A stretch of DNA of 64,000 nt from Alphaproteobacteria bacterium UBA3864 (GTDB lineage: Bacteria > Pseudomonadota > Alphaproteobacteria > CAAGCB01 > CAG-977), in assembly GCA_002393065.1 (NCBI GenBank), contig DGGW01000004.1, positions 16,461-80,460 on the forward strand. Direction: 5' to 3'. Of this stretch, positions 1,861-63,434 are shown in pieces (positions within the stretch are counted from its first letter, which is position 1; each line of letters starts with the position of its first letter). The notes beneath the pieces are model-generated. The model was not told the DNA's origin. It made no database searches and saw nothing but the letters and a program-made list of their open reading frames with translations. Made by a program: the position numbers and the translations under genes.

Positions 1861-2702
1861 TCACCGTTTCCGCCCCCGCGAAAGTCAATCTGTATCTGCA
1901 CGTCGTCGGAAAAAGACAGGACGGCTATCACTTGCTTGACAGTCTTTTCGCGTTCACGCGCGACGGCGATGAAATCGTCGTCGAAAACAGCGACGATCTG
2001 ACGCTGACGGTCACAAACCCCGATTTGAGCGCCGGCGAAGACAACATCGTGATGAAAGCGGCGCGCAAATTGGCGCAAGCTTTGGATATCGAACCGAAAG
2101 CCGCGATAACTTTGCGCAAAAACCTGCCCGTCGCGTCGGGGATCGGCGGCGGATCATCGGACGCCGCCGCGACATTGGAAGCGTTGCAGCTTTTATGGGG
2201 AAAACGGCTTGAACCAGCCGCGTTGCACCGGTTAGCGACAGAGCTCGGCGCCGACGTGCCCGCGTGTTTGGAAAAAAAGGCCGTCGCCGTTTCCGGCATC
2301 GGCGAGATCCTGACGCCCGCGCCGGCTTTGCCCCCGTTCGCCGTTTTGCTGGTCAACCCGAACAAACCCGTATCGACGCCCGCCGTTTTCAAAGCCCGCC
2401 GCCCTGTTTTTTCCAAAAAAGCGCCCTTGCCGCCCGAAGCGTTCGCCGACGCAGACCTTTTCGTTCGCGAACTGAAAAAAAGGCATAACGATTTGCAGGA
2501 CGCCGCCTGCGTCATCGAACCGGCCGTCCGCGACGTGCTGGCCGCGCTCGAAAAACGGGATAACGCCTTGTTTTCAGCCATGTCCGGCAGCGGCGGAACC
2601 TGCTTCGCCCTGTTTTCAACGGAAGAAAACGCCCGAAAAGCCGCCGTTGAAATCGCCGGAAACCATCCCGATTGGTGGGTGAAACCGAGCGTTTTGATCT
2701 GA
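1857..2702 (+). CDS. ispE: 4-diphosphocytidyl-2-C-methyl-D-erythritol kinase
   Basis: 281 aa. N-terminus MITVSAPAKVNLYLHVVGKRQDGYHLLDSLF and GHMP-kinase glycine motif PVASGIGGGSSDAAA. Confidence 0.9.
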   Translation: MITVSAPAKVNLYLHVVGKRQDGYHLLDSLFAFTRDGDEIVVENSDDLTLTVTNPDLSAGEDNIVMKAARKLAQALDIEPKAAITLRKNLPVASGIGGGSSDAAATLEALQLLWGKRLEPAALHRLATELGADVPACLEKKAVAVSGIGEILTPAPALPPFAVLLVNPNKPVSTPAVFKARRPVFSKKAPLPPEAFADADLFVRELKKRHNDLQDAACVIEPAVRDVLAALEKRDNALFSAMSGSGGTCFALFSTEENARKAAVEIAGNHPDWWVKPSVLI

Positions 2703-2768
2703 AAATATCGCCGGACGGTTCCGAATTTGGCAAAACGAATAAAAAGCCGTTGAGAAGACCAGCTTTTT

Positions 2769-2796
2769 TTGATATAAAATCTTGTCTAGTTATCGT
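2769..2796 (+). promoter_or_regulatory. candidate sigma70-type promoter for the RND efflux operon (TTGATA, 16-nt spacer, TATCGT)
   Basis: Hexamers sit in the 115-bp spacer between ispE and the adaptor gene; the -10 is weak. Confidence 0.3.
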
Positions 2797-2816
2797 CGCT
2801 GTTTCGGCGACTTTTC

Positions 2817-4016
2817 GTGTTTGGAGACCTTTCGATGTTACAAAATATTCGTCGTTTTTCCTTTTGCCTGATCGCCGTTGCGACCGTTTCGGGATTGAGC
2901 GGTTGTTTGAAGCAGAAACAAGCCGCCGCTCCCGTCATGCAAAAACCGCACGTAACCGTCAGCAAAGCCGTTTACGGCGCTTATACGGAACATTTTTCGT
3001 TCCCCGCCCGCGTGGAAGCCGTCGAATCCGTTACGCTGAAAACCCGCGTTTCCGGCTTTTTGAAAGAACGCCTGTTTGAAGAAGGCGATATCGTCAAAAA
3101 AGGTCAGCTGCTGTTCACCATCGAACGCGAACCGTTCGAAGCGCGCGTCGCCGAAGCGGAGGCGAACCTCGCCAAAGCGAAGGCCGACGCTAAAAATTCG
3201 CAACTGAACTTCAACCGCGCCCTCGAATTGCGCAAAACGGGCAACATATCGCAATCGACCGTCGATACCCGCGAAGCAGAAAGCACCGTTGCCAAAGCCG
3301 CCGTTCTGCAGGCGGAAGCCGCGCTGAACATCGCGAAACTGGACCTTGACTACACCAACGTCAAAGCGCCGTTCACCGGCAAAATCGGTCTGGCTGCCTT
3401 TTCGTCGGGCGAATATCTGCCCGCCAATACCGTTTTGGCGCAAATTGTCAGCTTTAACCCGATCAACGCGATCTTTTCCGTTTCCGAACAGGAATTGCTT
3501 TCCATGCAGAAAGCCGGCGTTTTCAACAACAACGGCAATCTTTCCGTTTCGCTGATCATGGCGGATTCCTCCGTTTACCGTTACAGCGGCCAGATCAACT
3601 TCACCGACGTCGTCGTCAACGACGGAACGGATACCATCAAGCTCCGCGCTGTTTTCCCGAACCCCGAAAAACAGCTGGTTTCCGGTCAGTTTGTTTCCCT
3701 GTTGATGGAATACGAAGCGCCGACCGAAAAAATCATCATCCCGCAGGAAGCGCTGATGTCTTCCGTCGCGTCCAAGTACGTTTACGTGATCGATTCCCAG
3801 AACAAAGTCGTCAACAAACCGGTTCAGGTCGGTGTCGAACAAGGCAAAAACATCGTCGTCCTGAACGGATTGGAAGCCGGTGAGCTGGTCATCCGCGAAG
3901 GCCTCCAGAAAGTCCGCCCCGGACAGGAAGTCGTCATCGACATGCCCGCCCCTGCGAAGCCCGTCGAAAATACAGCCCCCGCCACCGTCGAAAGCATCGA
4001 CGATATTGAAGGATAA
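2817..4016 (+). CDS. RND efflux periplasmic adaptor (membrane fusion protein, AcrA/MexA-like) lipoprotein
   Basis: 399 aa. Lipobox LSGC, coiled-coil segment AEAEANLAKAKADAKNSQLNF and a beta-barrel/MP domain typical of the HlyD/MFP family. An alternative start is at 2835. Sits 7 nt upstream of the RND permease. Confidence 0.85.
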   Translation: MFGDLSMLQNIRRFSFCLIAVATVSGLSGCLKQKQAAAPVMQKPHVTVSKAVYGAYTEHFSFPARVEAVESVTLKTRVSGFLKERLFEEGDIVKKGQLLFTIEREPFEARVAEAEANLAKAKADAKNSQLNFNRALELRKTGNISQSTVDTREAESTVAKAAVLQAEAALNIAKLDLDYTNVKAPFTGKIGLAAFSSGEYLPANTVLAQIVSFNPINAIFSVSEQELLSMQKAGVFNNNGNLSVSLIMADSSVYRYSGQINFTDVVVNDGTDTIKLRAVFPNPEKQLVSGQFVSLLMEYEAPTEKIIIPQEALMSSVASKYVYVIDSQNKVVNKPVQVGVEQGKNIVVLNGLEAGELVIREGLQKVRPGQEVVIDMPAPAKPVENTAPATVESIDDIEG

Positions 4017-7691: not shown

Positions 7692-7707
7692 TGTTTCACG
7701 TAAAACA
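7692..7707. promoter_or_regulatory. parS-like site TGTTTCACGTAAAACA (one mismatch to the canonical ParB-binding palindrome)
   Basis: Matches 15 of 16 positions of the two perfect copies at 49206 and 63015 and shares their AAAATG 5' flank. Confidence 0.55.
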
Positions 7708-7892: not shown

Positions 7893-8249
7893 ATGACGCT
7901 ATCGCAAAACGACACTCCCTCGAACGAAAACGGATTAACGACGCCGAATTTGACGGCCGTTGCCAACGCCTTCAAGTCGTTAGATGATGATATGCGGCTT
8001 CGGATCTTTTGGTTGTTGCGCGACGGCGAAAAAAGCGTCGGAGAAATAGCGGCTTTGATGAAAATGAGCTGTCCGGCCGTTTGTCATCATTTAAAACAGC
8101 TGAAAATCGGCGGATTGCTGGTCAGCCGCCGCGACGGCAAAGAGGTTTACTATACAAAAGCGCAAACGACGCGAACGAATCTGCTTTGCCTGACGATCGA
8201 AGGGTTGATAAAACTCGGTCCGGAGACGTCCGCTTCTTCGCTTCGTTGA
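7893..8249 (+). CDS. ArsR/SmtB-family winged-helix transcriptional regulator
   Basis: 118 aa. HTH segment LRLRIFWLLRDGEKSVGEIAALMKMSCPAVCHHLKQLKIGGLL. Preceded by a 230-bp very AT-rich spacer. Confidence 0.7.
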   Translation: MTLSQNDTPSNENGLTTPNLTAVANAFKSLDDDMRLRIFWLLRDGEKSVGEIAALMKMSCPAVCHHLKQLKIGGLLVSRRDGKEVYYTKAQTTRTNLLCLTIEGLIKLGPETSASSLR

Positions 8250-8360
8250 AAAACGGGAGTTTGCTTAAAAGACCGAAACGATCAAATCGAAGTGAACAAT
8301 GACGGACTTGAAAAATCCGGTCGATTCATTAATAATCATTCCTGTTCATTGGCAGAAACG

Positions 8361-8450
8361 AAAAAAAGCCCTGATTTCTCAAGGCTTTTAAATTGGTGCG
8401 GATAGCGGGACTCGAACCCGCACGAGGATAAGCCTCAACAGATTTTAAGT
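8361..8450. repeat. left copy of a roughly 90-bp direct repeat (tRNA-Leu 3' half plus downstream terminator)
   Basis: About 95% identical to 12655-12745. Contains ...CTGATTTCTCAAGGCTTTT..TGGTGCGGATAGCGGGACTCGAACCCGCACGAGGA.AAGCCTCAACAGATTTTAAGT. Confidence 0.8.
8394..8450 (-). pseudogene. truncated tRNA-Leu fragment (3' 57 nt, from the anticodon loop to CCA)
   Basis: The reverse complement equals the 3' part of the intact tRNA-Leu at 12689-12775, then diverges exactly in the anticodon loop. Confidence 0.8.
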
Positions 8451-8553
8451 TAAAGCTTTGAATTTTTCACCGTTGTTTACGGACATTCTTTGTAATTCAT
8501 ATTCTATAATGAAATCAAAGAGTTATTTGATTACTTCCGTTTTTCGTAATTAA

Positions 8554-8823
8554 AATCTTTCCATCACGATTGATGTTAAAAGTTGCAAAGAGGTTGCAAC
8601 GGAAATCCGCAAAGCGACGGCGGAAACGGAGGCGGCAAAGAGGAAAACGGCGGATTTGAGACGTGAATATGACGCTTTTATCGAACGGACGAACAAGAAT
8701 TACTCTTTCTTCAAAAGCTTTCTTGAATCGCGTCCGGAATGGAAAAAGGAGTTCCTGCGACAGCGTGAGGAGTTGGCGCGGTCGCAGGAAAACCGTTCCA
8801 GAAATTACGGACGGGAACGGTAA
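8554..8823 (+). pseudogene. paralog of the small protein at 11850-12110, lacking a canonical start codon
   Basis: Open frame ...RREYDAFIERTNKNYSFFKSFLESRPEWKKEFLRQREELARSQENRSRNYGRER*. No in-frame ATG/GTG/TTG in the 5' part. Confidence 0.35.
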
Positions 8824-8962
8824 TAACATTAGGGCATCTTTCTGACAAAATCGTAGTATTATTCCTAATTAGAATAGCTATCTATAAAAACAAACGATTA
8901 GACATAGGATCGAAAACTCTTTAAGGTTAAATCAATACCAACCGAACAAAGGAGTTTTCAAA

Positions 8963-10021
8963 ATGACATTGACGAAGAAAGTGCTGACATCTGTTGCCGC
9001 AGTAAGCGTGTTTTTTACGATGGGGTGCGCCTCAATCTGCAAAAAAGATCCGACAAAGCCCGTTTCTATGGTTAAAGAATGGGATAAAGTGTTTCCGAAA
9101 AGCGATAAGGTTGAACATAAAAAAGTGACCTTTAAAAATCGCTACGGTTTATCTTTGGTTGCCGATTTGTATTTGCCGAAAGACTTGAACGGCAAAGCGG
9201 CGGCGATCGCGGTCAGCGGTCCGTTCGGCGCGGTTAAAGAACAGTCTTCCGGTCTATATGCGCAAACGATGGCGGAACGCGGTTTTGTCACTTTGGCTTT
9301 TGATCCGTCCTATACGGGCGAAAGCGGCGGACAGCCCCGCAACATAGCGTCTCCCGACATCAATACCGAAGATTTTTCCGCCGCCGTCGATTATTTAAGC
9401 GTTCAGCCGTTTGTCGACGCGGATAAAATCGGAATCATCGGCATTTGCGGCTGGGGTGGTTTTGCTTTGAACGCCGCAGCGGCAGACACACGCATTAAAG
9501 CGACCGTCACGTCGACGATGTATGATATGACGCGGGTTTCCGCCAGAGGATACAACGATTCAATGTCTGCGGACGATTTGTATAAGATGCGGCAGAATTT
9601 GAACAATCAACGCACACGGGATTATAAAAACGAAACTTTCGCCGAAGCCGCCGGATTGCCGGACAAGCTGACGGGAAGTGAACCGCAGTTTGTAAAAGAC
9701 TATTTCGGGTATTATAAAACGCCGTTAGGGTTTCATTCCCGTTCCATCAATTCCAACGGTCATTGGAAGACGACTTCCTCTTTATCTTTAATTACACAGC
9801 CGATTTTGTCTTACGCAAACACGATTAAAAGCCCCGTTTTGATGATTCACGGAGAAAAAGCGCATAGCCGTTATTTCAGCGAAGGGGCTTTTAAAAAACT
9901 TACCGGAAAAAACAAGGAATTGATGATTATTCCGAACGCGAACCACACGGATTTATACTATAAAACCGATGTCATTCCGTTTGATAAAATGGAGCGGTTC
10001 TTCAAGACAAATCTGAAATAA
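8963..10021 (+). CDS. alpha/beta-hydrolase-fold lipoprotein (dienelactone-hydrolase/BAAT-like, Cys nucleophile)
   Basis: 352 aa. Strong RBS AAGGAG. Lipobox FFTMGCAS, nucleophile elbow GICGWGG and a C-terminal His (NHTD). Confidence 0.75.
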   Translation: MTLTKKVLTSVAAVSVFFTMGCASICKKDPTKPVSMVKEWDKVFPKSDKVEHKKVTFKNRYGLSLVADLYLPKDLNGKAAAIAVSGPFGAVKEQSSGLYAQTMAERGFVTLAFDPSYTGESGGQPRNIASPDINTEDFSAAVDYLSVQPFVDADKIGIIGICGWGGFALNAAAADTRIKATVTSTMYDMTRVSARGYNDSMSADDLYKMRQNLNNQRTRDYKNETFAEAAGLPDKLTGSEPQFVKDYFGYYKTPLGFHSRSINSNGHWKTTSSLSLITQPILSYANTIKSPVLMIHGEKAHSRYFSEGAFKKLTGKNKELMIIPNANHTDLYYKTDVIPFDKMERFFKTNLK

Positions 10022-10043
10022 AGAAAAAACGGCGGGACAAAAA

Positions 10044-10382
10044 ATGAACATTCTTGTCGGAAGCATAATGTTGGCAGTCGCGCTTGAAAACAATCCGACG
10101 GCGGCGGCGATTTCGGAAAAATTGCCGCTGACCGTTGATATGGCGGAGCTGAACGGCAACGAAAAATACGTTTATCTGCCTTTTTCCCTGCCGTCAAATC
10201 CGGAGCCTGTCGGAAACATCAAAGCCGGAGATGTGATGTTGTTCGGCGATGATTGTCTGGTGATTTTCTATCAGAATTTTAAAACGTCCTACACTTATAC
10301 AAAAATAGGACGGATAGAAAATGCGGAAAATCTTTTTGAAATTCTGAAACGCGGAAAAGTATCCGTCTCTTTTACAAAATAA
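10044..10382 (+). CDS. cyclophilin-like-fold protein
   Basis: 112 aa. Pattern ...AVALENNPTAAA...LPLTVDM..L.....YLP........G...AGDVMLFGD.CLVIFY resembles the cyclophilin-like family that is commonly paired with flavodoxin-like genes. Confidence 0.6.
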   Translation: MNILVGSIMLAVALENNPTAAAISEKLPLTVDMAELNGNEKYVYLPFSLPSNPEPVGNIKAGDVMLFGDDCLVIFYQNFKTSYTYTKIGRIENAENLFEILKRGKVSVSFTK

Positions 10383-10393
10383 AGGAGTTTGAT

Positions 10394-10933
10394 GTGAAAA
10401 AAGTTGTTATCGTTTCTTCTTCGCCGCGTAAAAACGGCAATTCTGAAATACTGGCGTTTGAAGCCGCCAAAGGCGCAAAAGACGCTGGAAATGAAGTCGA
10501 AATTTTGCTTTTGCGCGACAAAACAATCAATTTCTGCCGCGGCTGTCTGGCTTGTCAAAAGATGCTGAAATGCGTCATTAAAGACGATATGGCGGAAATG
10601 ATTGAAAAAGTCAGAAACGCTGATACCGTTATTTTCGCAACGCCGATCTATTATTATGAAATGAGCGGACAGCTGAAAACTTTTCTCGACCGGTGCAATC
10701 CGATCTATCCGCAGGTATACGCTTTTCGTGATGTTTATCTGTTAAGTTCCTCTGCGGAGGAAGGGCAAAATGCCGCCGAACGCGCCGTTTCCGGTTTAAA
10801 AGGCTGGATCGAATGCTTTGAAAAGGCAAAGTTCGCCGGAGCCTTTAACGCGGGCGGCGTTACCGCGCCGAACGATGTTCTGAAAAACGCGGAAATGCTG
10901 AAAGCCGCTTATGATATGGGCAGGAATATTTAA
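10394..10933 (+). CDS. flavodoxin-like NADPH-dependent FMN reductase / iron-sulfur flavoprotein family protein
   Basis: 179 aa. GTG start 7 nt after AAAGGAG. N-terminus MKKVVIVSSSPRKNGNSEIL; motifs CRGCLAC and IFATPIYYYEMSGQLKTFLDR. Confidence 0.8.
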   Translation: MKKVVIVSSSPRKNGNSEILAFEAAKGAKDAGNEVEILLLRDKTINFCRGCLACQKMLKCVIKDDMAEMIEKVRNADTVIFATPIYYYEMSGQLKTFLDRCNPIYPQVYAFRDVYLLSSSAEEGQNAAERAVSGLKGWIECFEKAKFAGAFNAGGVTAPNDVLKNAEMLKAAYDMGRNI

Positions 10934-11808
10934 ACGCGAACGGCTTGTTCGACACATTCCAATAACAAAGCGGCAACGGGTGTAAAAGCCTGATACTTCC
11001 GCCAAACAAAATAGAACGGACATTCCAACGGCGGGTTCAGCGGGATAAAGCTGAACTCGCTGTCTTTTCCGCAATACAGCAATTTGTCAAACGTCAGCAT
11101 CACCGCCATATTTTCCCGAACAAACGCCGTTCCGTTATACGGCAGGGTGTTAAAGCCGATAAAATCCAATTCATCCCTTTTTTCGCCGCACCAACGCGGT
11201 AAATCTTTATGAAAGCACTGTTCGGAACAAATCAGGGAATACTTCTTCAAATCGTTAAAAGAAACACTTTCCAGACGGCTCAACGGGTGATTTTTCAGAA
11301 CGACCGCCCCGAAGGAATCATTTTCGGGAACACGGACGACATTGTATTTCGATAGATTGGGATTTTCTACGAATACAGCCAAATCCAAAAAACCCTTGTC
11401 CAGTTTTTCCGCAACGTGTTCCGTATCGCCGCTGAACATATGAAAATGAATGTTCGGACAGGTTTCCCGCACTTTTTTCAATGCCTTGACCAGATAACGG
11501 ATTTGATACGATTCCGCACACCCCAAATACACGTCGCCGCCGGTCATATCGCTCAGCGTTTTAAATTCGCCGATGGTTTTATCCGTCATACCGACAATGT
11601 CCTCCGCGCGTTTTTTCAGGAGAAGTCCTTCTTCGGTCAACACCATTTTAGTGCTTTTACGCAGGAAAAGCTTCTTACCCAATTCCTCTTCCAATTCTTT
11701 CAACGCTTTTGACAAAGTCGGTTGAGTGACGTGAAGAATTTCCGACGCTTTTGTCATATTTTCCATACGGGCGATCGTCAAAAAATAACGTAACGATTTG
11801 ATTTCCAT
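10930..11808 (-). CDS. LysR-family transcriptional regulator
   Basis: 292 aa. N-terminal HTH MEIKSLRYFLTIARMENMTKASEILHVTQPTLSKALKELEEELG. Convergent 4-nt overlap with the flavodoxin-like gene. Confidence 0.85.
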   Translation of the reverse strand: MEIKSLRYFLTIARMENMTKASEILHVTQPTLSKALKELEEELGKKLFLRKSTKMVLTEEGLLLKKRAEDIVGMTDKTIGEFKTLSDMTGGDVYLGCAESYQIRYLVKALKKVRETCPNIHFHMFSGDTEHVAEKLDKGFLDLAVFVENPNLSKYNVVRVPENDSFGAVVLKNHPLSRLESVSFNDLKKYSLICSEQCFHKDLPRWCGEKRDELDFIGFNTLPYNGTAFVRENMAVMLTFDKLLYCGKDSEFSFIPLNPPLECPFYFVWRKYQAFTPVAALLLECVEQAVRV

Positions 11809-11849
11809 TTGTCCTCTCTGGTTGATACGGAATATCCGGTCAATGCTTT

Positions 11850-12110
11850 TTGTTTCTGCCCATAAGATTACGGTATTTTTCTTTTATAAGAAACAGTTTA
11901 TTGAACGGGATAAGAAACGTTCCGTTGCGGCGGGAATACAACGCTTTCATCGAACGGACGAACAAGAATTATTCTTTCTTCAAAAGCTTTCTTGAATCGC
12001 GTCCGGAATGGAAAAAGGAGCTTTTGCGACAACGTGAAGAATTGATCCGATCGCAGGAAAACCGTTCCAGAGATTACGGACGGGAACAATCAATAGGACG
12101 GGAAAGGTAA
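11850..12110 (+). CDS. small conserved hypothetical protein (island-end paralog family)
   Basis: 86 aa. The C-terminal ~55 aa are paralogous to 8665-8818; synonymous differences outnumber non-synonymous ones in this frame (8 vs 5), so the plus frame is the coding one. The true start is uncertain (TTG possible). Confidence 0.45.
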   Translation: MFLPIRLRYFSFIRNSLLNGIRNVPLRREYNAFIERTNKNYSFFKSFLESRPEWKKELLRQREELIRSQENRSRDYGREQSIGRER

Positions 12111-12192
12111 ATACGAACGCTTACGTTTGAAGCACGACGTAATAAACAACAGTTTATTGCCAAAATGAAAAGAATCGTATAAAAAGTAAAAG

Positions 12193-12224
12193 TCCGGTGG
12201 GTGCAACCGCCGGACTTTTGAAAC
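12193..12224 (+). terminator. rho-independent terminator hairpin GTCCGGTGG-GTGCAA-CCGCCGGAC followed by TTTTG
   Basis: A 9-bp stem with one G.U-type mismatch and a T-run, about 80 nt after the small ORF stop. Confidence 0.45.
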
Positions 12225-12447
12225 CCCACAAGGAATCAATATACCTAATTCCTCTGCTCGGTTTCAGGATATGAAAATGTAAGGCTTTTGTCAAGCATTT
12301 TCAGTTGGTTCCTTCTCAACGCGGTAATGTTTCCGCAAAATGGAGGAATAATACGTTTTTATGAGATCAAAGTCCGCCTTTATTGGCTGGCTTTGCGCAT
12401 TATCGAGATTCTGTCTGTCTTAATCAGATAGGCGGAAGATCGGAGAA

Positions 12448-12478
12448 CGGCAGGGATTTTCCCTGCCGTTTCTTTTCA
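12448..12478 (+). terminator. rho-independent terminator ACGGCAGGG-ATTTT-CCCTGCCGT followed by TTCTTTTC
   Basis: Perfect 9-bp stem with a T-rich tail, directly after the 20-codon micro-ORF. Confidence 0.5.
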
Positions 12479-12654
12479 CGGGATTTCGTTTTTAACAAGC
12501 GGACAAAACAAATAAAAACCCCGCCTTTCGATTTCAGAAATCGGTTGCAAAAACAGAGGCGTTTTACAATAATGGATTCGGAAACGGGTTGCAAAGAGGT
12601 TGCAACGGTGATTTTTCAAAGGAAAGGCTTTTTCTGCGGCGAATGTTTCGGGCA

Positions 12655-12745
12655 ATAAAAAAGCTCTGATTTCTCAAGGCTTTTCGATTGGTGCGGATAG
12701 CGGGACTCGAACCCGCACGAGGACAAGCCTCAACAGATTTTAAGT
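12655..12745. repeat. right copy of the roughly 90-bp direct repeat (terminator plus tRNA-Leu 3' half)
   Basis: See 8361-8450; three short mismatch clusters separate the two copies. Confidence 0.8.
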
Positions 12746-12775
12746 CTGTTGTGTCTACCATTCCACCATATCCGC
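12689..12775 (-). tRNA. tRNA-Leu (anticodon UAA), type II with long variable arm
   Basis: Reverse complement GCGGATATGGTGGAATGGTAGACACAACAGACTTAAAATCTGTTGAGGCTTGTCCTCGTGCGGGTTCGAGTCCCGCTATCCGCACCA folds as a cloverleaf. Anticodon loop CTTAAAA; CCA is encoded. Confidence 0.9.
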
Positions 12776-12801
12776 GTCTTTTTCGTTTTTAACACAAGGC
12801 G

Positions 12802-25995: not shown

Positions 25996-26024
25996 TTGCA
26001 GTTTTTTTAATATAGCACTATAAG
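25996..26024 (+). promoter_or_regulatory. candidate promoter for tRNA-Pro (TTGCAG, 17-nt spacer, TATAAG)
   Basis: Hexamers positioned about 15 nt upstream of the tRNA 5' end. Confidence 0.4.
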
Positions 26025-26038
26025 TTCGCTTATGCAAT

Positions 26039-26115
26039 CGGAGTGTAGCTCAGCTTGGTAGAGCACTACGTTCGGGACGTAGGGGTCGGAGGTTCAAATC
26101 CTCTCACTCCGACCA
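26039..26115 (+). tRNA. tRNA-Pro (anticodon CGG)
   Basis: CGGAGTGTAGCTCAGCTTGGTAGAGCACTACGTTCGGGACGTAGGGGTCGGAGGTTCAAATCCTCTCACTCCGACCA folds as a cloverleaf. Anticodon loop TTCGGGA; CCA is encoded. Confidence 0.9.
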
Positions 26116-26122
26116 ATATAAG

Positions 26123-26156
26123 CCCTTGAAAACGATGTGTTTTCAAGGGTTTTTCT
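26123..26156 (+). terminator. rho-independent terminator (11-bp stem CCCTTGAAAAC / GTTTTCAAGGG followed by TTTTTC)
   Basis: Perfect hairpin plus T-tract 8 nt after the tRNA-Pro 3' end. Confidence 0.8.
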
Positions 26157-26611
26157 TTTGCCGGAAAACAGCTCTGAAACAGCCACAAGGTAACAAATAG
26201 GTAACACACAACGGGGGCTTTTACAGGCTCAAAAAAAATTTCACATCGAATCGGTAAAAGCGGAAAGTTTTCGCCGCCGTTTTATGGCTGTGAAAGCGAG
26301 ACGGCGGAACGGAATAATATTGTCTAGTTGAGTGTGGATTTTTTGTCCGGCTTTGACCAATTTGACCGAGTCCTGATAGCGCAGGAAAAATCCTTCCGTC
26401 AGCCCGAAACAACGCATCAACCGCAAATCCGTATCAGCAGTAATTCCTCTTGATACATATAATATATATCCTTTATTTTACAAGCGCTTATAAGAGTTTG
26501 AATGTCCCTATGTTAAAATTGGTCCTTTTTTTGAATTTACGAAATTTTGAAGCGAAAAATCCTTTAAAATCAATATCCGTTCCTCAGGAGCCTACCAAGG
26601 TAAAATGAGGT

Positions 26612-26638
26612 AAAAAAGGCTTTTTTCGTAAAAAAGCC
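26612..26638 (-). terminator. terminator hairpin GGCTTTTTT-CGT-AAAAAAGCC (T-tract on the minus strand) downstream of ogt
   Basis: 9-bp stem and 3-nt loop, about 45 nt after the ogt stop. Confidence 0.5.
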
Positions 26639-26684
26639 ATGTGGTTAGCCTTGGCGTATTGAAATCTTTATTTTATTATAAAAT

Positions 26685-27224
26685 TTACAATGCTGTCCCG
26701 TTTTTCGGCACAAAAAAGCCGGACATATTCACTTTTTCTAACTCCAGTAGTTTGATTTTTTTTGTTATTCCACCCGCATAACCTGTTAGATTGCCTTTCG
26801 TTCCCACGACACGATGACAGGGAATAATCAATGAAATAGAATTATGCCCGACAGCCCCGCCAACCGCTTGCGCCGACATCTGTTTAATGCCTTTTTCTCT
26901 GGCGATTTTATCGGCAATCTGTCCATAAGTCATCGTTTGCCCGAATGGAATTGTAAGCATAATTTCCCATACTCTCTTTCTAAAAGGTGTTGTAAGTATT
27001 TTAAGCGGTGGCGTAAAATCAGGTGTCTGACCGCTAAAATAAATATCAAGCCACCTATCAGCCTTTTCAAAAACAGGCAAATCTTTTTCTGGCGCATTTT
27101 CATCTATTGTATCTGCGAAAAACTTCTGTCCATCAAACCACAAACCGATTAGGTATCTTCCCTCGCTTGCCACTGTTATACCACCAAGCGGTGATTGATA
27201 ATGATGTATATAGTTATTTATCAC
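26685..27224 (-). CDS. ogt: methylated-DNA--protein-cysteine methyltransferase
   Basis: 179 aa. Active-site motif IPCHRVV; upstream helix-turn-helix YGQIADKIAREKG. Confidence 0.85.
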   Translation of the reverse strand: MINNYIHHYQSPLGGITVASEGRYLIGLWFDGQKFFADTIDENAPEKDLPVFEKADRWLDIYFSGQTPDFTPPLKILTTPFRKRVWEIMLTIPFGQTMTYGQIADKIAREKGIKQMSAQAVGGAVGHNSISLIIPCHRVVGTKGNLTGYAGGITKKIKLLELEKVNMSGFFVPKNGTAL

Positions 27225-27394
27225 GTATATTTTTCCTTTTTTATTTATTATATTTGATATAAGTATTTGATATTAAAAATCTTTGTCAATATAAAATGTT
27301 TGTTCGTAAATAATTATTATAAGGTGTTCAGCCGGGGAACGCTGTGCGATTCCGGCCTGATTTCCGATACGGGAACGGCGGAAATACGGTAAAA

Positions 27395-28018
27395 TCACCG
27401 TCGAATATGCAGATAAATCAACGGGATACTGATCAGGGAAATGGCGTACTTAACGATAAAGTTGAACATAAAAATCTGCCAAATAATGTCCCAACCGTAT
27501 GTTCCGGCAAAGGCGCCGACGCAAAAAATCGCGTTATCGACAGGAATGCTGACGGTGTTGCTGACAAAAACACGCCCCCATTTACGCCTTTCACCAAACC
27601 GCTTTTCATAAACGTGATAGACTTCCGTATCGACCAGTTCACTGACCAGTTGAGCCAATAAGGAAAAAGCAACGATACGCCAAACCGGCGCCAGACAATC
27701 GTTGAACGCCACCGAAGCCGACGATGACGGATTGGACGGAAACAAAGCGACGAACGCGAAATAACCGGACATCAGCAAATTCAGAAAAACGGCGAAATAA
27801 ATGCATTTTCGCGTCATTTCTCTGCCCAGTTCGCGATGCATCAGATCGCGCAAAGTAAATGTCAGCGGATAGAGAAACACGCCCATATCGACCGCATAGC
27901 CGAAAATAAATCCGACTTTAATGCTGCTGATGTTTGAAATCAGTTGCAACGCGACATAAGACAAAGAAACAAACAAAGCCACGGACGTCATTTTATTCAC
28001 TATAACGTTTTTAAACAA
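27395..28018 (-). CDS. queuosine-precursor transporter (YhhQ/VUT family, DUF165)
   Basis: 207 aa, six predicted TM helices. Motifs FIFGYAVDMGVFLYPLTFTLRDL and IPVDNAIF are typical of YhhQ. Confidence 0.7.
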   Translation of the reverse strand: MFKNVIVNKMTSVALFVSLSYVALQLISNISSIKVGFIFGYAVDMGVFLYPLTFTLRDLMHRELGREMTRKCIYFAVFLNLLMSGYFAFVALFPSNPSSSASVAFNDCLAPVWRIVAFSLLAQLVSELVDTEVYHVYEKRFGERRKWGRVFVSNTVSIPVDNAIFCVGAFAGTYGWDIIWQIFMFNFIVKYAISLISIPLIYLHIRR

Positions 28019-46697: not shown

Positions 46698-47708
46698 TTA
46701 TTGACCGGAAATGACATCGTCGTTTTTATCGAACGAATCGTCAAAAACGACATCGCCGACATCGTCCTTTTCCATTTGGATGACATCGTCCGTAACCGCG
46801 TCGCTGCCGATAATCGTATCTTCGGAAACGGCCGGCTTTTCAGGTTCCGCATGATTGTTTCCCAAACGTCCGATGATGAAATCGAGCTCTTCAAGCGAAG
46901 CATACGAAACGACCAACTCCCCGCCTTTGGCTTTGGGACGGATGGAAACTTTCAATTCGAGCATTTGCGACAATTCGTTGGCCAAAAATTCCCATTCGTC
47001 GTTTTTCTTGTTCGTTTTATCGACGGATTTCTTTTGCTTCTTTTCGGGAATGCCTTTTTGGGCAAGCTTTTCCGTTTGACGGACGCTCAATCCTTTTGAA
47101 ACGACTTCTTCGGCCAAAGCGACGGGATCTTTTGCCGTCAGCAACGCGCGGGCGTGGCCGCCGGTCAGTTTTCCGCTTTCCAACAATTCTTTGACGGGTT
47201 GCGGAAGGCCGAGCAATCGCATCGTGTTCGCGACATGACTGCGACTTTTTCCGACAGCCTGCGCCAGTTCTTCCTGCGTATTGGCAAATTCCTCCATCAG
47301 ACGGCGGTAGCCTTCGGCTTCTTCCAAAGCGTTCAAATCCTGCCGCTGCAGGTTTTCGATCAAAGCGACTTCCAGAGCTTCCTTGTCCGAAAAGTCTTTG
47401 ATCAAAACGGGAACTTCCGTCAATCCCGCCGCCTGCGCCGCGCGCCAACGCCGTTCGCCGCCGATGATTTCGTATTTTTCGGCTTCGTTCGGAATCCTGC
47501 GAACGATCAAAGGCTGTAAAATCCCTTTGACTTTAACGGATTCGATCAAGTCCCGAATAGCGTCTTCGTTAAAAACCCGTCGAGGCTGAAACCGACTGGG
47601 TTCCAAGTCGGAAACGGGCAAAGACGAAACGGATCCCGTCGATCTGTTCGTATTTTCTTCTTCGGCGCCGAGCAACATGCTTAAACCGCGACCCAAACCT
47701 TTACTCAT
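46698..47708 (-). CDS. parB: chromosome partitioning protein ParB with an acidic C-terminal extension
   Basis: ParB box GERRWRAA, HTH, dimerisation domain, plus an extra ~40-aa Asp/Val-rich tail. Confidence 0.9.
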   Translation of the reverse strand: MSKGLGRGLSMLLGAEEENTNRSTGSVSSLPVSDLEPSRFQPRRVFNEDAIRDLIESVKVKGILQPLIVRRIPNEAEKYEIIGGERRWRAAQAAGLTEVPVLIKDFSDKEALEVALIENLQRQDLNALEEAEGYRRLMEEFANTQEELAQAVGKSRSHVANTMRLLGLPQPVKELLESGKLTGGHARALLTAKDPVALAEEVVSKGLSVRQTEKLAQKGIPEKKQKKSVDKTNKKNDEWEFLANELSQMLELKVSIRPKAKGGELVVSYASLEELDFIIGRLGNNHAEPEKPAVSEDTIIGSDAVTDDVIQMEKDDVGDVVFDDSFDKNDDVISGQ

Positions 47709-48493
47709 TTTTTCACCTCTTGTTTTAATATTTCCGCCGCCAAACCTATATAAGCCTGCGATCCTCTGCTTTTGAAATCGTACAGCAAAATCGGTTTGCC
47801 GTGCGACGGCGCTTCGGAAACGCGAACGTTTCTGGGAATGACGGTTTTATAAACCTTGTCCCCGAAATAGCTTCGCACGTCTTGGGCAACGACCTCGGAA
47901 AGCCCCGTCCGGCCGTCATACATCGTCAAAACCAGCCCTTGAATGATCAAATCGTGATTGAAATTCCTGTGCACCAGTTCGACCGTTTTCATCAGATCGG
48001 CCAGACCTTCCAGCGCCAGATATTCGCATTGGACGGGAATCATGACGCCGCGGGCCGCGACAAGAGCGTTGACTGTCAGCATCCCGACGGAAGGCGGACA
48101 ATCTATAAAAATGTAATCATATGCCAGCGATTCCTGATCGAAAGCTTTTTTCAGATAAAACTGCGGATTCTTTTTTTGCGCCAGTTCGAAATCGACACCG
48201 GCCAGATCCTTTGACGCCGCGATAACGGACAAGTTCGGAATCTTCGTCCAAATGATGGCGGACGAAATCGTCGCGTCACCCATCATAACATCGTAAGCGT
48301 TTCTGGCGGCCTTGACCCGGCTGACGCCCAGACTGACCGTCGCGTTTCCCTGCGGATCCAGATCGATCAGCAAAACTTTTCGCCCGGCCGCCGCCAAAGC
48401 GGTCGCCACATTAATTGCCGTCGTCGTTTTGCCGACACCGCCTTTCTGATTCGAAACGGCGATGATGTACGGTTTTTTATTCAGGACATTCAT
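47705..48493 (-). CDS. parA: chromosome partitioning ATPase ParA (Soj)
   Basis: Deviant Walker A KGGVGKTT; 262 aa. Confidence 0.9.
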   Translation of the reverse strand: MNVLNKKPYIIAVSNQKGGVGKTTTAINVATALAAAGRKVLLIDLDPQGNATVSLGVSRVKAARNAYDVMMGDATISSAIIWTKIPNLSVIAASKDLAGVDFELAQKKNPQFYLKKAFDQESLAYDYIFIDCPPSVGMLTVNALVAARGVMIPVQCEYLALEGLADLMKTVELVHRNFNHDLIIQGLVLTMYDGRTGLSEVVAQDVRSYFGDKVYKTVIPRNVRVSEAPSHGKPILLYDFKSRGSQAYIGLAAEILKQEVKK

Positions 48494-49110
48494 TTCTTAC
48501 GAACCTCCGCCATACATAAAATACGGCCTTCTTCACTGGTCTGACTTTGAACCTTTTTAAGGTCAAAATCAAATTTTTTCAAACACGTTTTAATTTCTTC
48601 CTCGGCTTTTTTCCCTTTCATGAACAAACAACGGGTATGTTTATCCGTAAACGGCAAAGCGTAAGCCGTCAATTTATCAAGCGAAGCCAACGCTCGCGCC
48701 GTGATGACATCGACTTTGAAAGGCGTCATTTTTTCGATTCTGCCGTTATGAACGATAATATTGTCAGCCCCGCACTTCAAGGCGGCCTCTTTCAAAAAAT
48801 CACTTTTACGCCCTTCGCTTTCCGTTAAATGGAAAATCTTGTCCGGATTCATCAGCGCCAGAACGAAAGCCGGAAAACCGGCGCCGCTTCCAAAATCCAA
48901 AATCGTTTTATCCGTTGTCTTCAACAAACCGGACAACTGCGCCGAATCCAAAACATGACGCGTCCATATCACCGGTAACGTCGAATCGGCGATCAAATTC
49001 ATAACGGACTGGGTTTGTTCAAGAAAAGAAATATAAACATCCAATTTGCCGACGACATCCTCGGACAAATTCAAACGCTTCAAAACCGTTTCGCGTTCAT
49101 CGGAAATCAC
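48490..49110 (-). CDS. rsmG: 16S rRNA (guanine527-N7)-methyltransferase
   Basis: 206 aa. SAM motif DFGSGAGFP; rsmG-parA-parB joined by ATGA overlaps. Confidence 0.9.
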   Translation of the reverse strand: MISDERETVLKRLNLSEDVVGKLDVYISFLEQTQSVMNLIADSTLPVIWTRHVLDSAQLSGLLKTTDKTILDFGSGAGFPAFVLALMNPDKIFHLTESEGRKSDFLKEAALKCGADNIIVHNGRIEKMTPFKVDVITARALASLDKLTAYALPFTDKHTRCLFMKGKKAEEEIKTCLKKFDFDLKKVQSQTSEEGRILCMAEVRKK

Positions 49111-49205: not shown

Positions 49206-49221
49206 TGTTTCACGTGAAACA
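49206..49221. promoter_or_regulatory. parS centromere site TGTTTCACGTGAAACA (perfect match)
   Basis: Canonical 16-bp ParB-binding palindrome, 96 bp upstream of the rsmG start in the rsmG-hslU spacer. Confidence 0.85.
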
Positions 49222-50624: not shown

Positions 50625-51151
50625 AGTTTTTCCATAATGATGTTATGATTGGTGTAAATGCAGATATCGGCGGCGATCGTCATCGCTTTCATCGCGATCT
50701 GTTCGGCCGTCAGATCGGAATCCGCCAAAGCCAAAGCGGCGGCCTGCGCGAACGACCCGCCCGAACCGATGCCGACGATGCCGTTTTGAGGTTCCAAAAC
50801 GTCGCCGTTTCCCGTCAGGACAAGAATCGTTTCCTTGTCGGCAACAATCATCATCGCTTCAAGCTTTCTTAAATACCGATCCGTTCTCCAGTCTTTGGCG
50901 AGTTCGACGCAGGCGCGGGTCAGCTGTCCCGAATGCTTTTCGATTTTTTCTTCCAGCCGTTCGCACAGCGTAAAGGCATCCGCCGTCGCACCGGCAAATC
51001 CGGTTACGATGTCGCCCTTTCCCAAACGGCGAAGTTTTTTAGCATTGCTTTTCAAAACGGTATTGCCAAACGTCACCTGACCGTCGCCGGCCATGACGAC
51101 ATCGCCGTCTTTGCGCACGCAAAGGATTGTCGTCCCTCTTAAATCGTCCAT
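50621..51151 (-). CDS. hslV: ATP-dependent protease subunit HslV (with short N-terminal propeptide)
   Basis: Mature N-terminus [10 protein letters not shown] is preceded by MDDLRG, as in alphaproteobacterial HslV. Confidence 0.9.
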
Positions 51152-51264
51152 GTCAAAACCTCCTTTTCCGATTCGGCTTTGAAAAGATTTTGACGGAACA
51201 AAAGTTAAAAATCAATGCGTTCTTCCGAATAAAAACTCCCTTCGGTTGACGAAGGGAGCTTTTA

Positions 51265-51840
51265 TCACCAGTTGTTCATTTTCAATTCGTAATAAGCCTT
51301 GGCGTGCAAACATGCCGGACACATTTCCGGCGGTTCTTCGCCGACATAGGTGTAACCGCAGTTCCGGCATTGCCACACGGTTTCTTTGTTTCGTTTGAAA
51401 ACGCGGCCTTCTTTGATGTTTTCGGCCAAATCAAGATAGCGCTGTTCGTGATTTCTTTCGGCGACGATGATCGCACGGAAAGCGGCGGCAACTTCGGGAT
51501 ATCCTTCTTCGTCCGCCGTTTTTGCAAAAGAAGGATATAAGTCTTCGGCTTCGTGATGTTCGCCGGCGGCGGCTTCCGTCAGATTATCAAGCGTCGTGCC
51601 GATAACGCCGGCCGGATAAGTCCCTTCGATAACGCATTCGCCGCCTTCCAGAAATTTAAAAAAACGTTCGGCGTGTTCTTTTTCCTGATCGGCCGTTAAT
51701 CTGAAAATGTCGGCGATCTGTTCGTATCCTTCCTTTTTCGCCTGCGACGCCCAAAAAGTGTAGCGCATTCTGGCCTGGCCTTCGCCGGCGAAAGCGGCCA
51801 TTAAATTCTTTTCCGTTTGAGAACCTTTGATACACTTCAT
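51265..51840 (-). CDS. rubrerythrin (ferritin-like di-iron domain plus C-terminal rubredoxin-like CxxC...CxxC)
   Basis: Motifs EGQARMRY, EKEHAE, EHHEAE and C-terminal CRNCGY...CPAC. Confidence 0.85.
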   Translation of the reverse strand: MKCIKGSQTEKNLMAAFAGEGQARMRYTFWASQAKKEGYEQIADIFRLTADQEKEHAERFFKFLEGGECVIEGTYPAGVIGTTLDNLTEAAAGEHHEAEDLYPSFAKTADEEGYPEVAAAFRAIIVAERNHEQRYLDLAENIKEGRVFKRNKETVWQCRNCGYTYVGEEPPEMCPACLHAKAYYELKMNNW

Positions 51841-51949
51841 TTTTTTTCCTTTCAGTTTGATAAAAAAAATTTAGAGGAAAGGAAAAAAAAGTAAATCGCG
51901 TCTTACGGATAAAAAAATCCTCTTTAAGTTTTAAAGAGGATTTTTGTTT

Positions 51950-53203
51950 TTAAGAGTTCATCGCTTCAAAGAAATCGTGGTTGTTTTTTGACTGTTTGAG
52001 TTTTTCCATCAAAAATTCCATTGCGTCCGCCGGTCCCATCGGCATCAGGATACGACGCAATACCCACATTTTCGATTGAGTGTTCTTATCGACAAGCAAT
52101 TCTTCCTTGCGCGTTCCCGAACGGGTGATGTCGATCGCGGGGAAGATGCGTTTATCGGACACTTTGCGGTCAAGAATGATTTCCGAATTGCCCGTTCCTT
52201 TGAATTCTTCAAAAATAACTTCGTCCATACGGGAACCGGTGTCGATCAGGGCGGTCGCGATAATGGTCAGGGAACCGCCTTCCTCGATATTGCGGGCGGC
52301 GCCGAAAAAGCGTTTCGGTTTTTGAAGAGCGTTGGCGTCGACGCCGCCGGTCAGCACCTTTCCGGAGCTGGGAACGACCGTATTGTAAGCGCGTGCCAAA
52401 CGCGTGATCGAATCGAGCAGAATGACGACGTCGCGCTTGTGTTCGACAAGGCGTTTCGCTTTTTCGATGACCATTTCGGCGACCTGAACGTGACGGGCCG
52501 CCGGTTCGTCAAACGTCGAGCTGATGACTTCGCCTTTGATCGACCGGCTCATTTCCGTAACTTCTTCGGGGCGTTCGTCGATCAACAGGACAATCAGGTA
52601 CATTTCAGGATTGTTCTGCGTAATGGCGTGAGCGATGTTCTGCAACATGACGGTTTTACCGGTTCTGGGCGGCGCGACGATCATGCCGCGCTGTCCTTTG
52701 CCTTGCGGACAAATCAGGTCGATGATGCGGGACGTCATGTTTTTGCTGTCGACATCGCCTTCCATTTTGATTTTTTCCGTCGGATGAAGCGGCGTCAGGT
52801 TGTCGAAATTGATACGATAACGGACCGATTCGGGATCGCAGAAGTTGATTTTCAACACCTTCGTCAAAGAAAAATAACGTTCGCCGTCCTTCGGGGCGCG
52901 GATTTCCCCTTCGACGGTATCGCCGGTTCTTAAACCGAATTTTTTGATTTGGCTGGGCGAAACGTAAATATCATCGGAACCGGCCAGATAGTTTGCCTGC
53001 GGAGAACGCAGAAAACCGAATCCGTCCTGCATGACCTCTATGACGCCTTCATCAATGAGTATTTCGTCGTTTTTGGCCAGTTGTTTCAAAACGGCGAACG
53101 TCAGATCTTGCGTCCGCAACATGGATGCGTTTTCGATACCTTGTTCTTCGGCTAAATTCAACAATTCGGCAGGGGATTTTTTCTTTAATTCTTTTAAATG
53201 CAT
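51950..53203 (-). CDS. rho: transcription termination factor Rho
   Basis: Start MHLKELKK at 53203. Motifs GFGFLR, Walker [10 protein letters not shown] and R loops. The longer ORF start is unlikely. Confidence 0.9.
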
Positions 53204-53642
53204 GGAAACCGCACTATAATATTTATCGTAAGAGGGGGAGAAAACGGCATCAGAACCGTGCCGCACGATTTTTTGTATGCTTAAAAAGCATCGGCGTCAA
53301 GCACAAAGAGTTTTCCCTTCTAAAAATATAAATATTAAAAAGATGATGTTTGATATTATTCCCTGTTGATAAGTATGACGCAATATTATCAACACTTTTT
53401 GCACATAAGGAGTCAAAAGCTTTTTATTCTTTCCGACGATGTTGACAATCGGGAACGACTCCGTCAAAACGGGCGGAAAACCTTTGTCTGTGAATAAGTT
53501 TGATAACTTTTTATCCCTTTTTTGACCGGTTTGAGCAAAAAAATCTGTTCAGAGTACATAAAAAAGAGGACTTTTGTTCGCAAAAGGGATAAAAAGGAAA
53601 CAGGCGCTTTTTTATCATACTTATACACAAGGAGGGCTAAAC
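53204..53642. other. candidate chromosomal replication origin (oriC) or extended rho leader: AT-rich divergent rho/maf spacer with DnaA-box-like 9-mers
   Basis: TTATCAACA at 53386-53394 (+) and 53364-53372 (-); TTATTCACA at 53489-53497 (-). Coding-strand bias switches here; parS sites lie nearby. Confidence 0.45.
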
Positions 53643-54233
53643 ATGTTGATATTGGCTTCGCAAAGCAAAAGCAGACAGGAAATGCTTGACGCCGCAGGTG
53701 TTGAGTTCACGGTCGTTTCCGCCGGTATTGACGAAGACGCCGTCCGCGACCGTTCCCGCGCCGAAGGGGATACGTCCAAAGAAGCGAGCATGAAACTGGC
53801 TTTGGCCAAAGCGATGGCCGTTTCCGAACAGTATCCGGAAGCGTACGTCATCGGCGCGGATCAGATCCTTGATCTGAACGGGGAATGGTTCAGCAAACCC
53901 GAAAATTTAAGTATGGCGCACAAGCATTTGAAAAAATTGCGTAATAAGAGCCATTTGCTGGTCAACGGCATCGCGGTCGTCAAAAATAAAAAGGTGATTT
54001 GGTGCGACAACAGCGTCGTTAAAGTGACGATGCGCGATTTTTCGGACAATTTCCTGGACGATTATCTGGCCGAAGCGGGGGAGGAAGTTTGCGAATCCGT
54101 CGGTGCTTATTATCTTGAGGATTTAGGTGCTCAACTGGTCAAATCGATCGACGGCGATTTCTTTTCCGTTCTCGGGTTGCCGCTTTTGCCGTTGCTTGAC
54201 TGTCTGCGTTCGTGCGGAGAGCTTCAAAAATGA
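53643..54233 (+). CDS. maf: Maf-like nucleoside-triphosphate pyrophosphatase
   Basis: Start MLILASQSKSRQEML after an AAGGAGGG RBS; Maf signature. Confidence 0.85.
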   Translation: MLILASQSKSRQEMLDAAGVEFTVVSAGIDEDAVRDRSRAEGDTSKEASMKLALAKAMAVSEQYPEAYVIGADQILDLNGEWFSKPENLSMAHKHLKKLRNKSHLLVNGIAVVKNKKVIWCDNSVVKVTMRDFSDNFLDDYLAEAGEEVCESVGAYYLEDLGAQLVKSIDGDFFSVLGLPLLPLLDCLRSCGELQK

Positions 54234-55027
54234 AAAAAGCCGGAGTCGTCGGAAATCCGGTCGCCCATTCAAAATCGCCGCTGATCCATTCGTACTGGCT
54301 TAAAAAGTACGAAATAGAGGCTTCGTATGAAAAAATCAAAGCGGATGATATCGCTTCGTTTATAAAAAACGCCGGAGAATACACGGGTTTTAACGTTACC
54401 GTTCCTTTTAAAACGGATATAATGCCGTTTATGGACGTTTTGTCGGATCAGGCAAAAAAAGCCGGCGCCGTCAATACGGTCGTCGTTCGTTCGGACGGTT
54501 CCTTTTACGGTCATAATACGGACGGAGCGGGATTCGTCGCCAACGTAAAAAGGGCTGATCCTTCTTTTAATATTAAAGAGTCTGTCGTCGTCATACTCGG
54601 GACCGGCGGTGCGGCCCGCGGTGTTTGTGCGGCCCTGACGGAAGCCAAAGAGGTCAGACTTGTTTACAGAACTCTTGAAAAGGCCGAAAAAATAAAGGAA
54701 TCCGTCGGTGAAAACATTGTTTTGATTCCGTGGGCGGATAAAGAGGACGTTTTATCCGATGCCGATTTGCTGGCCAACGCTACGACTCTGGGCATGAACG
54801 GATTTGATCCGCTTAAAATAGATTTGACGCCTTTGAAAAAAACGGCCGTTGTTTCTGATCTTGTTTACGCCCCTTTGAAAACGGATTTGCTGAAACAGGC
54901 CGAAAAGAAAGGTTTTATAACGGCCGACGGATTGGGAATGCTGCTTGAACAGGCCAGACCCGCCTTTAAGGAATGGTTCGGCGTTTTTCCGGAAATCACT
55001 GACGAATTAAGGGCTTTGGTCTTATGA
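54230..55027 (+). CDS. aroE: shikimate dehydrogenase
   Basis: Start MKKAGVVGNPVAHSKSPLIH (ATGA overlap with maf); motif ILGTGGAARG. Confidence 0.85.
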   Translation: MKKAGVVGNPVAHSKSPLIHSYWLKKYEIEASYEKIKADDIASFIKNAGEYTGFNVTVPFKTDIMPFMDVLSDQAKKAGAVNTVVVRSDGSFYGHNTDGAGFVANVKRADPSFNIKESVVVILGTGGAARGVCAALTEAKEVRLVYRTLEKAEKIKESVGENIVLIPWADKEDVLSDADLLANATTLGMNGFDPLKIDLTPLKKTAVVSDLVYAPLKTDLLKQAEKKGFITADGLGMLLEQARPAFKEWFGVFPEITDELRALVL

Positions 55028-62735: not shown

Positions 62736-62751
62736 AGGGTTGAAACAAAAG

Positions 62752-62779
62752 AAAAGGCGGGGTCTGTCCCCGCCTTTTT
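62752..62779. terminator. bidirectional terminator AAAA-GGCGGGG-TCTGT-CCCCGCC-TTTTT between convergent mnmG and yggS
   Basis: Perfect 7-bp GC stem flanked by an A-run and a T-run. Confidence 0.75.
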
Positions 62780-63434
62780 ATGCGTAATTTCGTTGTCCGA
62801 AAATCGCCGTCCCGACGCGAACGTATGTCGCGCCCAGTTGGACGGCAATCGGGAAATCATTGCTCATTCCCATTGAAAGTTCTTTTAAATTCAGCTGTTT
62901 GGCAAGCTTTTTTAACAGTGCGAAATGTGGTGCCGGTTCATCGTCCACAGGGGGGATACACATCAATCCGACGATATTCAGTCCTAATTCCAGACACTTA
63001 GCGGCGAAACTTAATGTTTCACGTGAAACAATCCCCGATTTCTGAACTTCAGATCCCGTGTTAACTTCGATGAAACAAGGCAGAAAACGGTTTTGTTTCT
63101 TCATTTCATCCGCCAGTTTTTCCGCCACTTCGATGCGGTCAACCGTTTCGATGACATCAAACAACGCAACGGCGTCTTTGACTTTGTTTGTTTGCAGATG
63201 TCCGATCAGATGCAATTCCAGATTAGGATACTTTTCTTTCAAAATGGTAAATTTTTCTTTGGCTTCCTGTACGCGGTTTTCGCCGAAAACGCGCTGGCCG
63301 GCTTCCAGAACGGGCAGGATCTCGTCAACCGTGTGCATTTTCGAAACGGCGATAAGGGTGATGTCCGACGGGTCGCGACCGCAATCTTTCGCCGCGGCAA
63401 CAAGCTGTTCTTTGACTTGCGAATAAGAAGTCAT
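62778..63434 (-). CDS. yggS: YggS-family pyridoxal-phosphate homeostasis protein (alanine-racemase N-terminal-like barrel)
   Basis: 218 aa with PLP-lysine region IAVSKMH and C-terminal TYVRVGTAIFG. Confidence 0.85.
   Translation of the reverse strand: MTSYSQVKEQLVAAAKDCGRDPSDITLIAVSKMHTVDEILPVLEAGQRVFGENRVQEAKEKFTILKEKYPNLELHLIGHLQTNKVKDAVALFDVIETVDRIEVAEKLADEMKKQNRFLPCFIEVNTGSEVQKSGIVSRETLSFAAKCLELGLNIVGLMCIPPVDDEPAPHFALLKKLAKQLNLKELSMGMSNDFPIAVQLGATYVRVGTAIFGQRNYA
63015..63030. promoter_or_regulatory. parS centromere site TGTTTCACGTGAAACA (perfect match, intragenic in yggS)
   Basis: Same 16-mer as 49206-49221. Encodes IVSRET in the yggS frame, so it is a binding site embedded in coding DNA. 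Confidence 0.8.

Follow-up and report, generated by a model that had tools for sequence, protein, structure and literature searches.

Within the coding sequence of yggS, in the 64,000-nt stretch of alphaproteobacterial DNA analysed here (the window), lies a perfect 16-bp palindrome of the kind bound by the chromosome partition protein ParB. This raises the question of whether it is a working chromosomal parS or only reflects the peptide that the gene encodes. The chromosomal parS consensus is tGTTNCACGTGAAACa, and the 16-bp inverted repeat at 63015–63030, TGTTTCACGTGAAACA, is perfectly palindromic and matches TGTTNCACGTGAAACA exactly. Its host gene (62778–63434, minus strand) encodes a 218-aa protein of the PLP-homeostasis family YggS, with a single domain (PF01168, 2.3e-21, residues 26–215), structural matches to PDB 3r79 (1.9e-70) and to E. 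coli YggS (1w8g, 4.5e-38), and both the FGENRVQE motif and Lys32 (in AVSK), presumably the PLP-binding lysine, invariant in an alignment of 22 homologues. It thus has the alanine-racemase-N-type barrel, the conserved lysine and the single-domain architecture of ~220–230 aa of that family. The minus strand is the coding strand of the site, which reads aT/T GTT TCA CGT GAA ACA, in frame as Ile135 to Thr140 (I-V-S-R-E-T), in the wider codon context GGG ATT GTT TCA CGT GAA ACA TTA (G-I-V-S-R-E-T-L); the coordinates, frame and peptide (residues 135–140) given for it in an earlier sequence-only reading of this DNA were all correct.

That reading had also reported that the 16-mer recurs 13.8 kb away and that such a recurrence is vanishingly improbable by chance, and both points are borne out. 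TGTTTCACGTGAAACA is found again, exactly, at 49206–49221, in the intergenic DNA between hslU and the rsmG-parA-parB operon, where it forms an 18-bp palindrome with its flanks, ATGTTTCACGTGAAACAT; arithmetic gives ~1.5e-5 for the expected exact recurrence of one given 16-mer in 64 kb. A parS-like sequence with one mismatch, TGTTTCACGTAAAACA, at 7692–7707, in intergenic DNA past an ORF ending at 7661 and ~45 kb off the probable origin described below, is possibly a weaker ParB site, and brings the window total to two perfect parS and one near-perfect. In dinucleotide-preserving shuffles of the window, matches with up to three mismatches occurred at a mean of 0.38 per shuffle, and none of the 100 shuffles contained three. 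The shared 18-mer, AATGTTTCACGTGAAACA, proposed for the two perfect copies is real, with AA on the left of both (AA precedes all three copies), but its two additional bases are not conserved in relatives and we rejected it as an extended site. In yggS they fall in the codon after that for Thr140, which varies (TTA, TCA, TTT, ATT, AAT), hence the flank lies outside the conserved element and its identity in the two copies is probably a coincidence. An Rfam scan of the window returned two tRNAs only, with no match at the yggS site.

A ParA/ParB pair is encoded 15 kb from the yggS site. The 49206 parS is immediately upstream of the operon, with hslU-hslV on its other side, and the operon comprises, all on the minus strand, rsmG (gidB; 48490–49110; PF02527, 1e-41) as first gene, parA (soj; 47705–48493), whose product is the ParA/MinD-type ATPase (PF13614, 1e-61; PF01656) that should partner a chromosomal parS, and parB (46698–47708), with ParB_N, HTH_ParB and ParB_C (C-terminal dimerisation) domains. 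The GERRxR motif of ParB binds CTP and is required for clamp closure and sliding; the predicted ParB carries it as GERRWR, in GGERRWRAAQ at residues 82–91 (GERR from residue 84). The protein aligns to the Caulobacter ParB-parS structure PDB 6t1f at 2.2e-68, with a near-identical recognition segment (GKSRSHVANTMRLL...GHARA; GKSRSHVANTMRLLGLP...LTGGHARA in the window compared to GKSRSHVANTMRLLALP...LTAGHARA in Caulobacter), and keeps the conserved contact residues Q162, G170, K171, S172, N178 and R204 (numbering as in PMC7383237). Noc and its NBS sites are a close point of comparison, being of the same protein family and with a similar 16-bp palindrome, and Noc structure 7ol9 matches the window ParB at 4e-53. 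However, whereas Noc specificity corresponds to the pattern Q-K-K-R, as opposed to R173 and G201 in the parS type (PMC7383237), the window ParB has Arg, Thr, Gly and Gly at Caulobacter positions 173, 179, 184 and 201, with no Lys at 179 or 184, and the DNA in the window is parS, not NBS. Judged by these residues, the window ParB is of the parS type and not of the Noc type, and the genome with the yggS site thus encodes a predicted cognate ParB with a parS-type helix-turn-helix.

The two perfect sites also flank what is probably the chromosomal origin. Cumulative GC skew reaches a minimum near 52 kb and rises afterwards, and genes are mostly on the minus strand to the left, and mostly on the plus strand to the right, of a 307-bp AT-rich spacer (53267–53573) between the divergent genes rho (51950–53266, minus) and maf (53574–54233, plus), in which several DnaA-box-like 9-mers occur with one mismatch each (53364, 53386, 53489). 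From the skew minimum, the orientation switch, the AT-rich spacer and the DnaA-box-like 9-mers, we infer that oriC is probably at or near this spacer; CtrA-type TTAA-N7-TTAA sites were not found across 51000–54500. With the probable origin at ~52–53.5 kb, the perfect parS lie ~4 kb to its left and ~10 kb to its right, the latter being the yggS site, which is thus origin-proximal. To the right of the par region the gene order is a rubrerythrin gene, rho (minus), the spacer, maf-aroE-coaE-dnaQ (plus), secB, a Tim44-like gene, mltA, smr, mnmE and mnmG (plus), followed on the minus strand by yggS and a porin gene. The rubrerythrin gene (51265–51840, minus) is between hslV and rho, and relatives are found in metagenomes of human gut and horse faeces (L102, L001); these two points suggest an anaerobic or microaerophilic gut-associated alphaproteobacterium. 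Elsewhere in the window, two stretches (8000–12800 and 26000–28000) have a G+C content of 0.41–0.45, compared to ~0.52–0.57 around them, and each adjoins a tRNA gene (tRNA-Leu, 12689–12775, minus; tRNA-Pro, 26039–26115, plus). One contains genes for an alpha/beta hydrolase, an FMN reductase and a LysR regulator, and the other for an Ogt-type methyltransferase and a Vut_1 transporter; both may be acquired DNA.

We consider it very probable that the 16-mer in yggS is a working chromosomal parS and a loading site for this ParB, and we infer from the sequences that ParB binding, clamp loading and a role in segregation take place there. With their helix-turn-helix domains, ParB dimers would recognise the palindrome; they would then bind CTP, and in this form would close as clamps and slide onto the neighbouring DNA. 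The yggS and 49206 sites, perhaps with the weaker one at 7692, would build an origin-proximal partition complex, which would be moved by ParA and would, as is typical, recruit SMC. Since the site is within coding sequence, its bases would be read in two ways: selection for the DNA site would fix GTT-(T/C)CA-CGT-GAA-ACA and the T that ends the codon before it, and through these the peptide V-(S/P)-R-E-T.

ParB could also bind the site in a role that is selected for locally, either by modulating how yggS and the adjacent porin gene are transcribed, or as a dedicated SMC-loading or boundary site where the origin domain ends on the right, and the neighbourhood of yggS in relatives bears on this. 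Upstream of yggS, all relatives share a conserved block that comprises genes for the porin and DUF3576, leuS, lptE and probable holA (a 338-aa gene with a weak DNA_pol3_delta match in L091). Directly downstream of yggS there is a breakpoint, at ~62736–62777 in the window and at ~10650–11000 in the loci L081, L084, L086, L089–L093 and L097. What follows it is mnmG-mnmE in L081 as in the window; L084 has a pilin-like gene and grpE there, and parB at a distance of 9 kb, L089 has rsmI and UPF0102, and L086, L090–L093 and L097 have spoU-ychF-pth. The yggS site has therefore outlasted rearrangements right beside it, and its staying with the porin-yggS block while the downstream DNA rearranges between lineages is what a local role would lead one to expect. 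So is its being the sole parS there, as no other was found within 10 kb either side of it in any relative locus examined (20 kb each). Moreover, the ParB of P. aeruginosa is described as nucleoid-associated and as binding to many motifs related to parS (PMC5961200). Nevertheless, these data fit ordinary nucleation of a partition complex equally well, two lineages (L095 and L092) have lost the site yet kept yggS and the porin gene, and two sites flanking the origin are a typical centromere layout; a selected role that is local is hence improbable. In some lineages only, an insertion with genes for an Eco47II-type restriction enzyme and a MerR-fused DNA cytosine methyltransferase (L084, 1682–3710; L096, 1785–3813) is found between the genes for adenylosuccinate lyase and probable holA; L095, whose YggS protein is identical to that of L096, is without it.

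The distribution of the site on an NJ tree of the neighbouring LeuS (77–97% identity within the clade, ~60% to outgroups) is that of an old but dispensable element. Genomes bearing parS in yggS fall in both major LeuS subclades. L095, which shows no trace of the site (VAPNAA at this place), is sister to the parS-bearing L084 at 97% LeuS identity; L092, nested among parS bearers, retains the right half only (ACA CCT CGT GAA ACA); and L097, on the basal branch of the clade, is without the site. The site is therefore old in the clade, with at least one complete and one partial loss, and is dispensable, at least where other sites exist; it is either younger than the split of L097 or was lost in L097 too. 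In several relatives no par genes were found within 10 kb of yggS, and in these the site is only presumably close to the origin. Among the matches listed, about a third of 80 distant alphaproteobacterial loci (L001–L080, with yggS at 10001) have parS 7–9 kb upstream of yggS, at positions ~400–3400, and some of these loci contain tight arrays of three to five parS spaced ~35–60 bp apart (at 577, 626, 669, 703 and 737 in L038; at 829, 889 and 945 in both L015 and L027), with a further site ~2 kb on. As yggS is thus often close to the origin or par genes in this class, it is an unsurprising place for a useful new parS.

A different possibility is that YggS needs V-P/S-R-E-T for its own function and that codon bias makes this spell parS by chance, with ParB irrelevant. 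We examined this with orthologue DNAs gathered by exact-protein look-up, a metagenome scan and a genome scan, selected on protein similarity only; the matches listed in the genome scan were all distant (at most 63% identity) and were used as negative controls. Homologue identities were graded, from 94–100%, through a large group at 65–72%, to more distant proteins. V-[S/P]-R-E-T is found at the site in 82 of the best 120 YggS homologues, and alphaproteobacterial YggS proteins fairly often have xPRET here (PDB 3r79 and L005, for instance, have IDPRET), so that part of a half-site pre-exists at the protein level. A plausible route to the site starts from this frequent x-P-R-E-T, in which CCN CGN GAR ACN pre-specifies most of one and a half half-sites, and which mostly synonymous changes and a Val codon could then turn into a complete parS. 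The stretch is otherwise variable in the family, though, with more distant homologues reading SPKDA, APNAA, LPKET and similar at the same place.

At the level of DNA, T GTT [T/C]CA CGT GAA ACA is present at the homologous codons in 21 of the 25 orthologues with at least 65% protein identity. The sole variable parS base in the 21 bearers is position 5, the N of TGTTNCACGTGAAACA, which makes the codon TCA (Ser) or CCA (Pro). The preceding codon is ATT, GTT or TGT, so that the residue varies (Ile, Val or Cys) while its third base, the T that is parS base 1, remains constant, contrary to what the protein alone would dictate. All 153 orthologues below 65% identity, among the matches listed, have at least six mismatches to parS, and the few of these that encode PRET choose other codons (CCG CGC GAA ACC, CCG CGT GAG ACC, etc.), with 6–7 mismatches. 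The sequence-only reading had held that orthologues coding for the same peptide without the palindrome would speak against its conservation. Such genes do exist, but all are outside the site-bearing clade, within which the peptide is never encoded by other codons, and so the objection does not apply there; the control instead supports selection at the DNA level. The alignment of orthologues that the same reading had called for thus reveals nucleotide conservation far beyond synonymous drift.

How unusual this conservation is within the gene was gauged from ten site-bearing lineages compared over yggS (64–88% nucleotide identity). They use the same codon at ~45–60% of shared amino acids, other synonymous sites being ~50% randomised, yet all ten keep every synonymous base of the site. 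Of 112 degenerate columns in which the amino acid is invariant, only 10 keep the codon invariant as well, and four of these ten are Val136, Arg138, Glu139 and Thr140 (hypergeometric ~3e-5 for four pre-specified columns, a value conditional on the ten lineages having been picked for carrying the site; the unconditioned figure is the 21 of 25 above). With a 16-base window slid along the codon alignment, parS ranks first in yggS, with 15 of 16 columns invariant, and the FGENRVQE motif ranks lower. The codons are also rare in the genome, as judged from ~20 genes in the window (ACA, 4.4% of Thr; TCA, 6.3% of Ser; CGT, 22% of Arg), and this usage gives a probability of 5.5e-5 for the 16-mer given IVSRET. 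Conservation of the DNA at the yggS site therefore exceeds the protein requirement, as is evident from the invariant codons, the top-ranking window, the rare codons and the distant controls, and protein constraint with codon bias is a very improbable explanation of the palindrome. Together with the cognate ParA and ParB, the codon conservation and the controls uphold the earlier proposal that the 16-mer in yggS is a second parS, constrained both as protein and as a predicted ParB site.

Least probable of all, and rejected, is that the conserved element is an mRNA hairpin in yggS acting in translational pausing or mRNA stability, since the 6-bp hairpin that a perfect 16-base palindrome can make (−6.1 kcal/mol for the window version) folds no better than shuffles (z = −1.1, with 31 of 200 folding equally well or better), the minimum-free-energy fold of the TGTTC variant is not the palindromic hairpin (z = +0.9), position 5 varies without compensation at position 12, as expected of the parS consensus but not of a stem, and the same 16-mer is also present between genes, upstream of the par operon.

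For a working parS in yggS, the variation at position 5 is of interest in itself. The residue encoded by parS bases 5–7 is Pro in 168 of 178 orthologues among the matches listed, and in 109 of the best 120 homologous proteins. Ser appears only with the perfect palindrome: all five Ser cases for which there is DNA have TCA in place of CCA, and VSRET is the peptide in each of the 11 proteins with Ser. On the LeuS tree, Pro-bearing TGTTC lineages come between the window group and L091, which are the two lineages with Ser, and the C-to-T change that perfects the palindrome therefore seems to have occurred twice. This may tentatively be read as selection on the DNA site having overridden the protein, with a near-universal proline lost for a perfect palindrome, though we regard it as rather less probable than not. 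If this were true, and the selection were for a stronger ParB site, nature would here provide a clean case in which a centromere-like site has driven an amino-acid replacement in a housekeeping enzyme.

The layout in the window resembles known ParABS systems, such as the Spo0J sites of B. subtilis and the parS cluster of Caulobacter crescentus, in having the same 16-bp palindrome with ParA and ParB encoded nearby. The founding parS of B. subtilis itself sits inside spo0J, and relatives of the window carry TGTTCCACGTGAAACA, which we take to be the classic B. subtilis parS sequence. The window ParB is ~55–60% identical to Caulobacter ParB (by eye, over 217 aligned residues) and has the same DNA-contact residues. 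In Caulobacter, too, parS is a few kb from the origin (~8 kb), with ParB covering ~10 kb (PMC5815017), the origin in the window being one placed from sequence features; in contrast, the Caulobacter parS form a tight cluster on one arm beside parAB, whereas the perfect sites of the window are on opposite sides of the probable origin. In P. aeruginosa nine of ten parS (parS1–3 and parS5–10) are in coding sequences, and had to be mutated by synonymous changes (PMC4368675). These are likewise in frame in protein-coding genes; here, however, the host gene is yggS, and the dual constraint is apparent from codon comparison across a clade instead of mutagenesis. Among the papers searched for a connection between parS and yggS, the single match was unrelated and none linked the two. 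Intragenic parS are already well known and the yggS site is in this respect ordinary for the field.

The finding accordingly leaves knowledge of ParABS unchanged, and its interest is in overlapping codes. The yggS site shows dual coding by comparison with unusual clarity: across a clade of uncultured gut- and animal-associated Alphaproteobacteria, whose divergence we estimate from LeuS identities of 77–97% as roughly that of a genus to a family, 16 bp hold synonymous positions fixed, impose rare codons and shape the peptide encoded there. In analyses of evolutionary rate, such a frozen stretch should not pass for constraint at the protein level. For the uncultured organism itself, the skew minimum and the pair of parS at 49206 and 63015 pin down the region of its chromosome that holds the probable origin and the predicted centromere.
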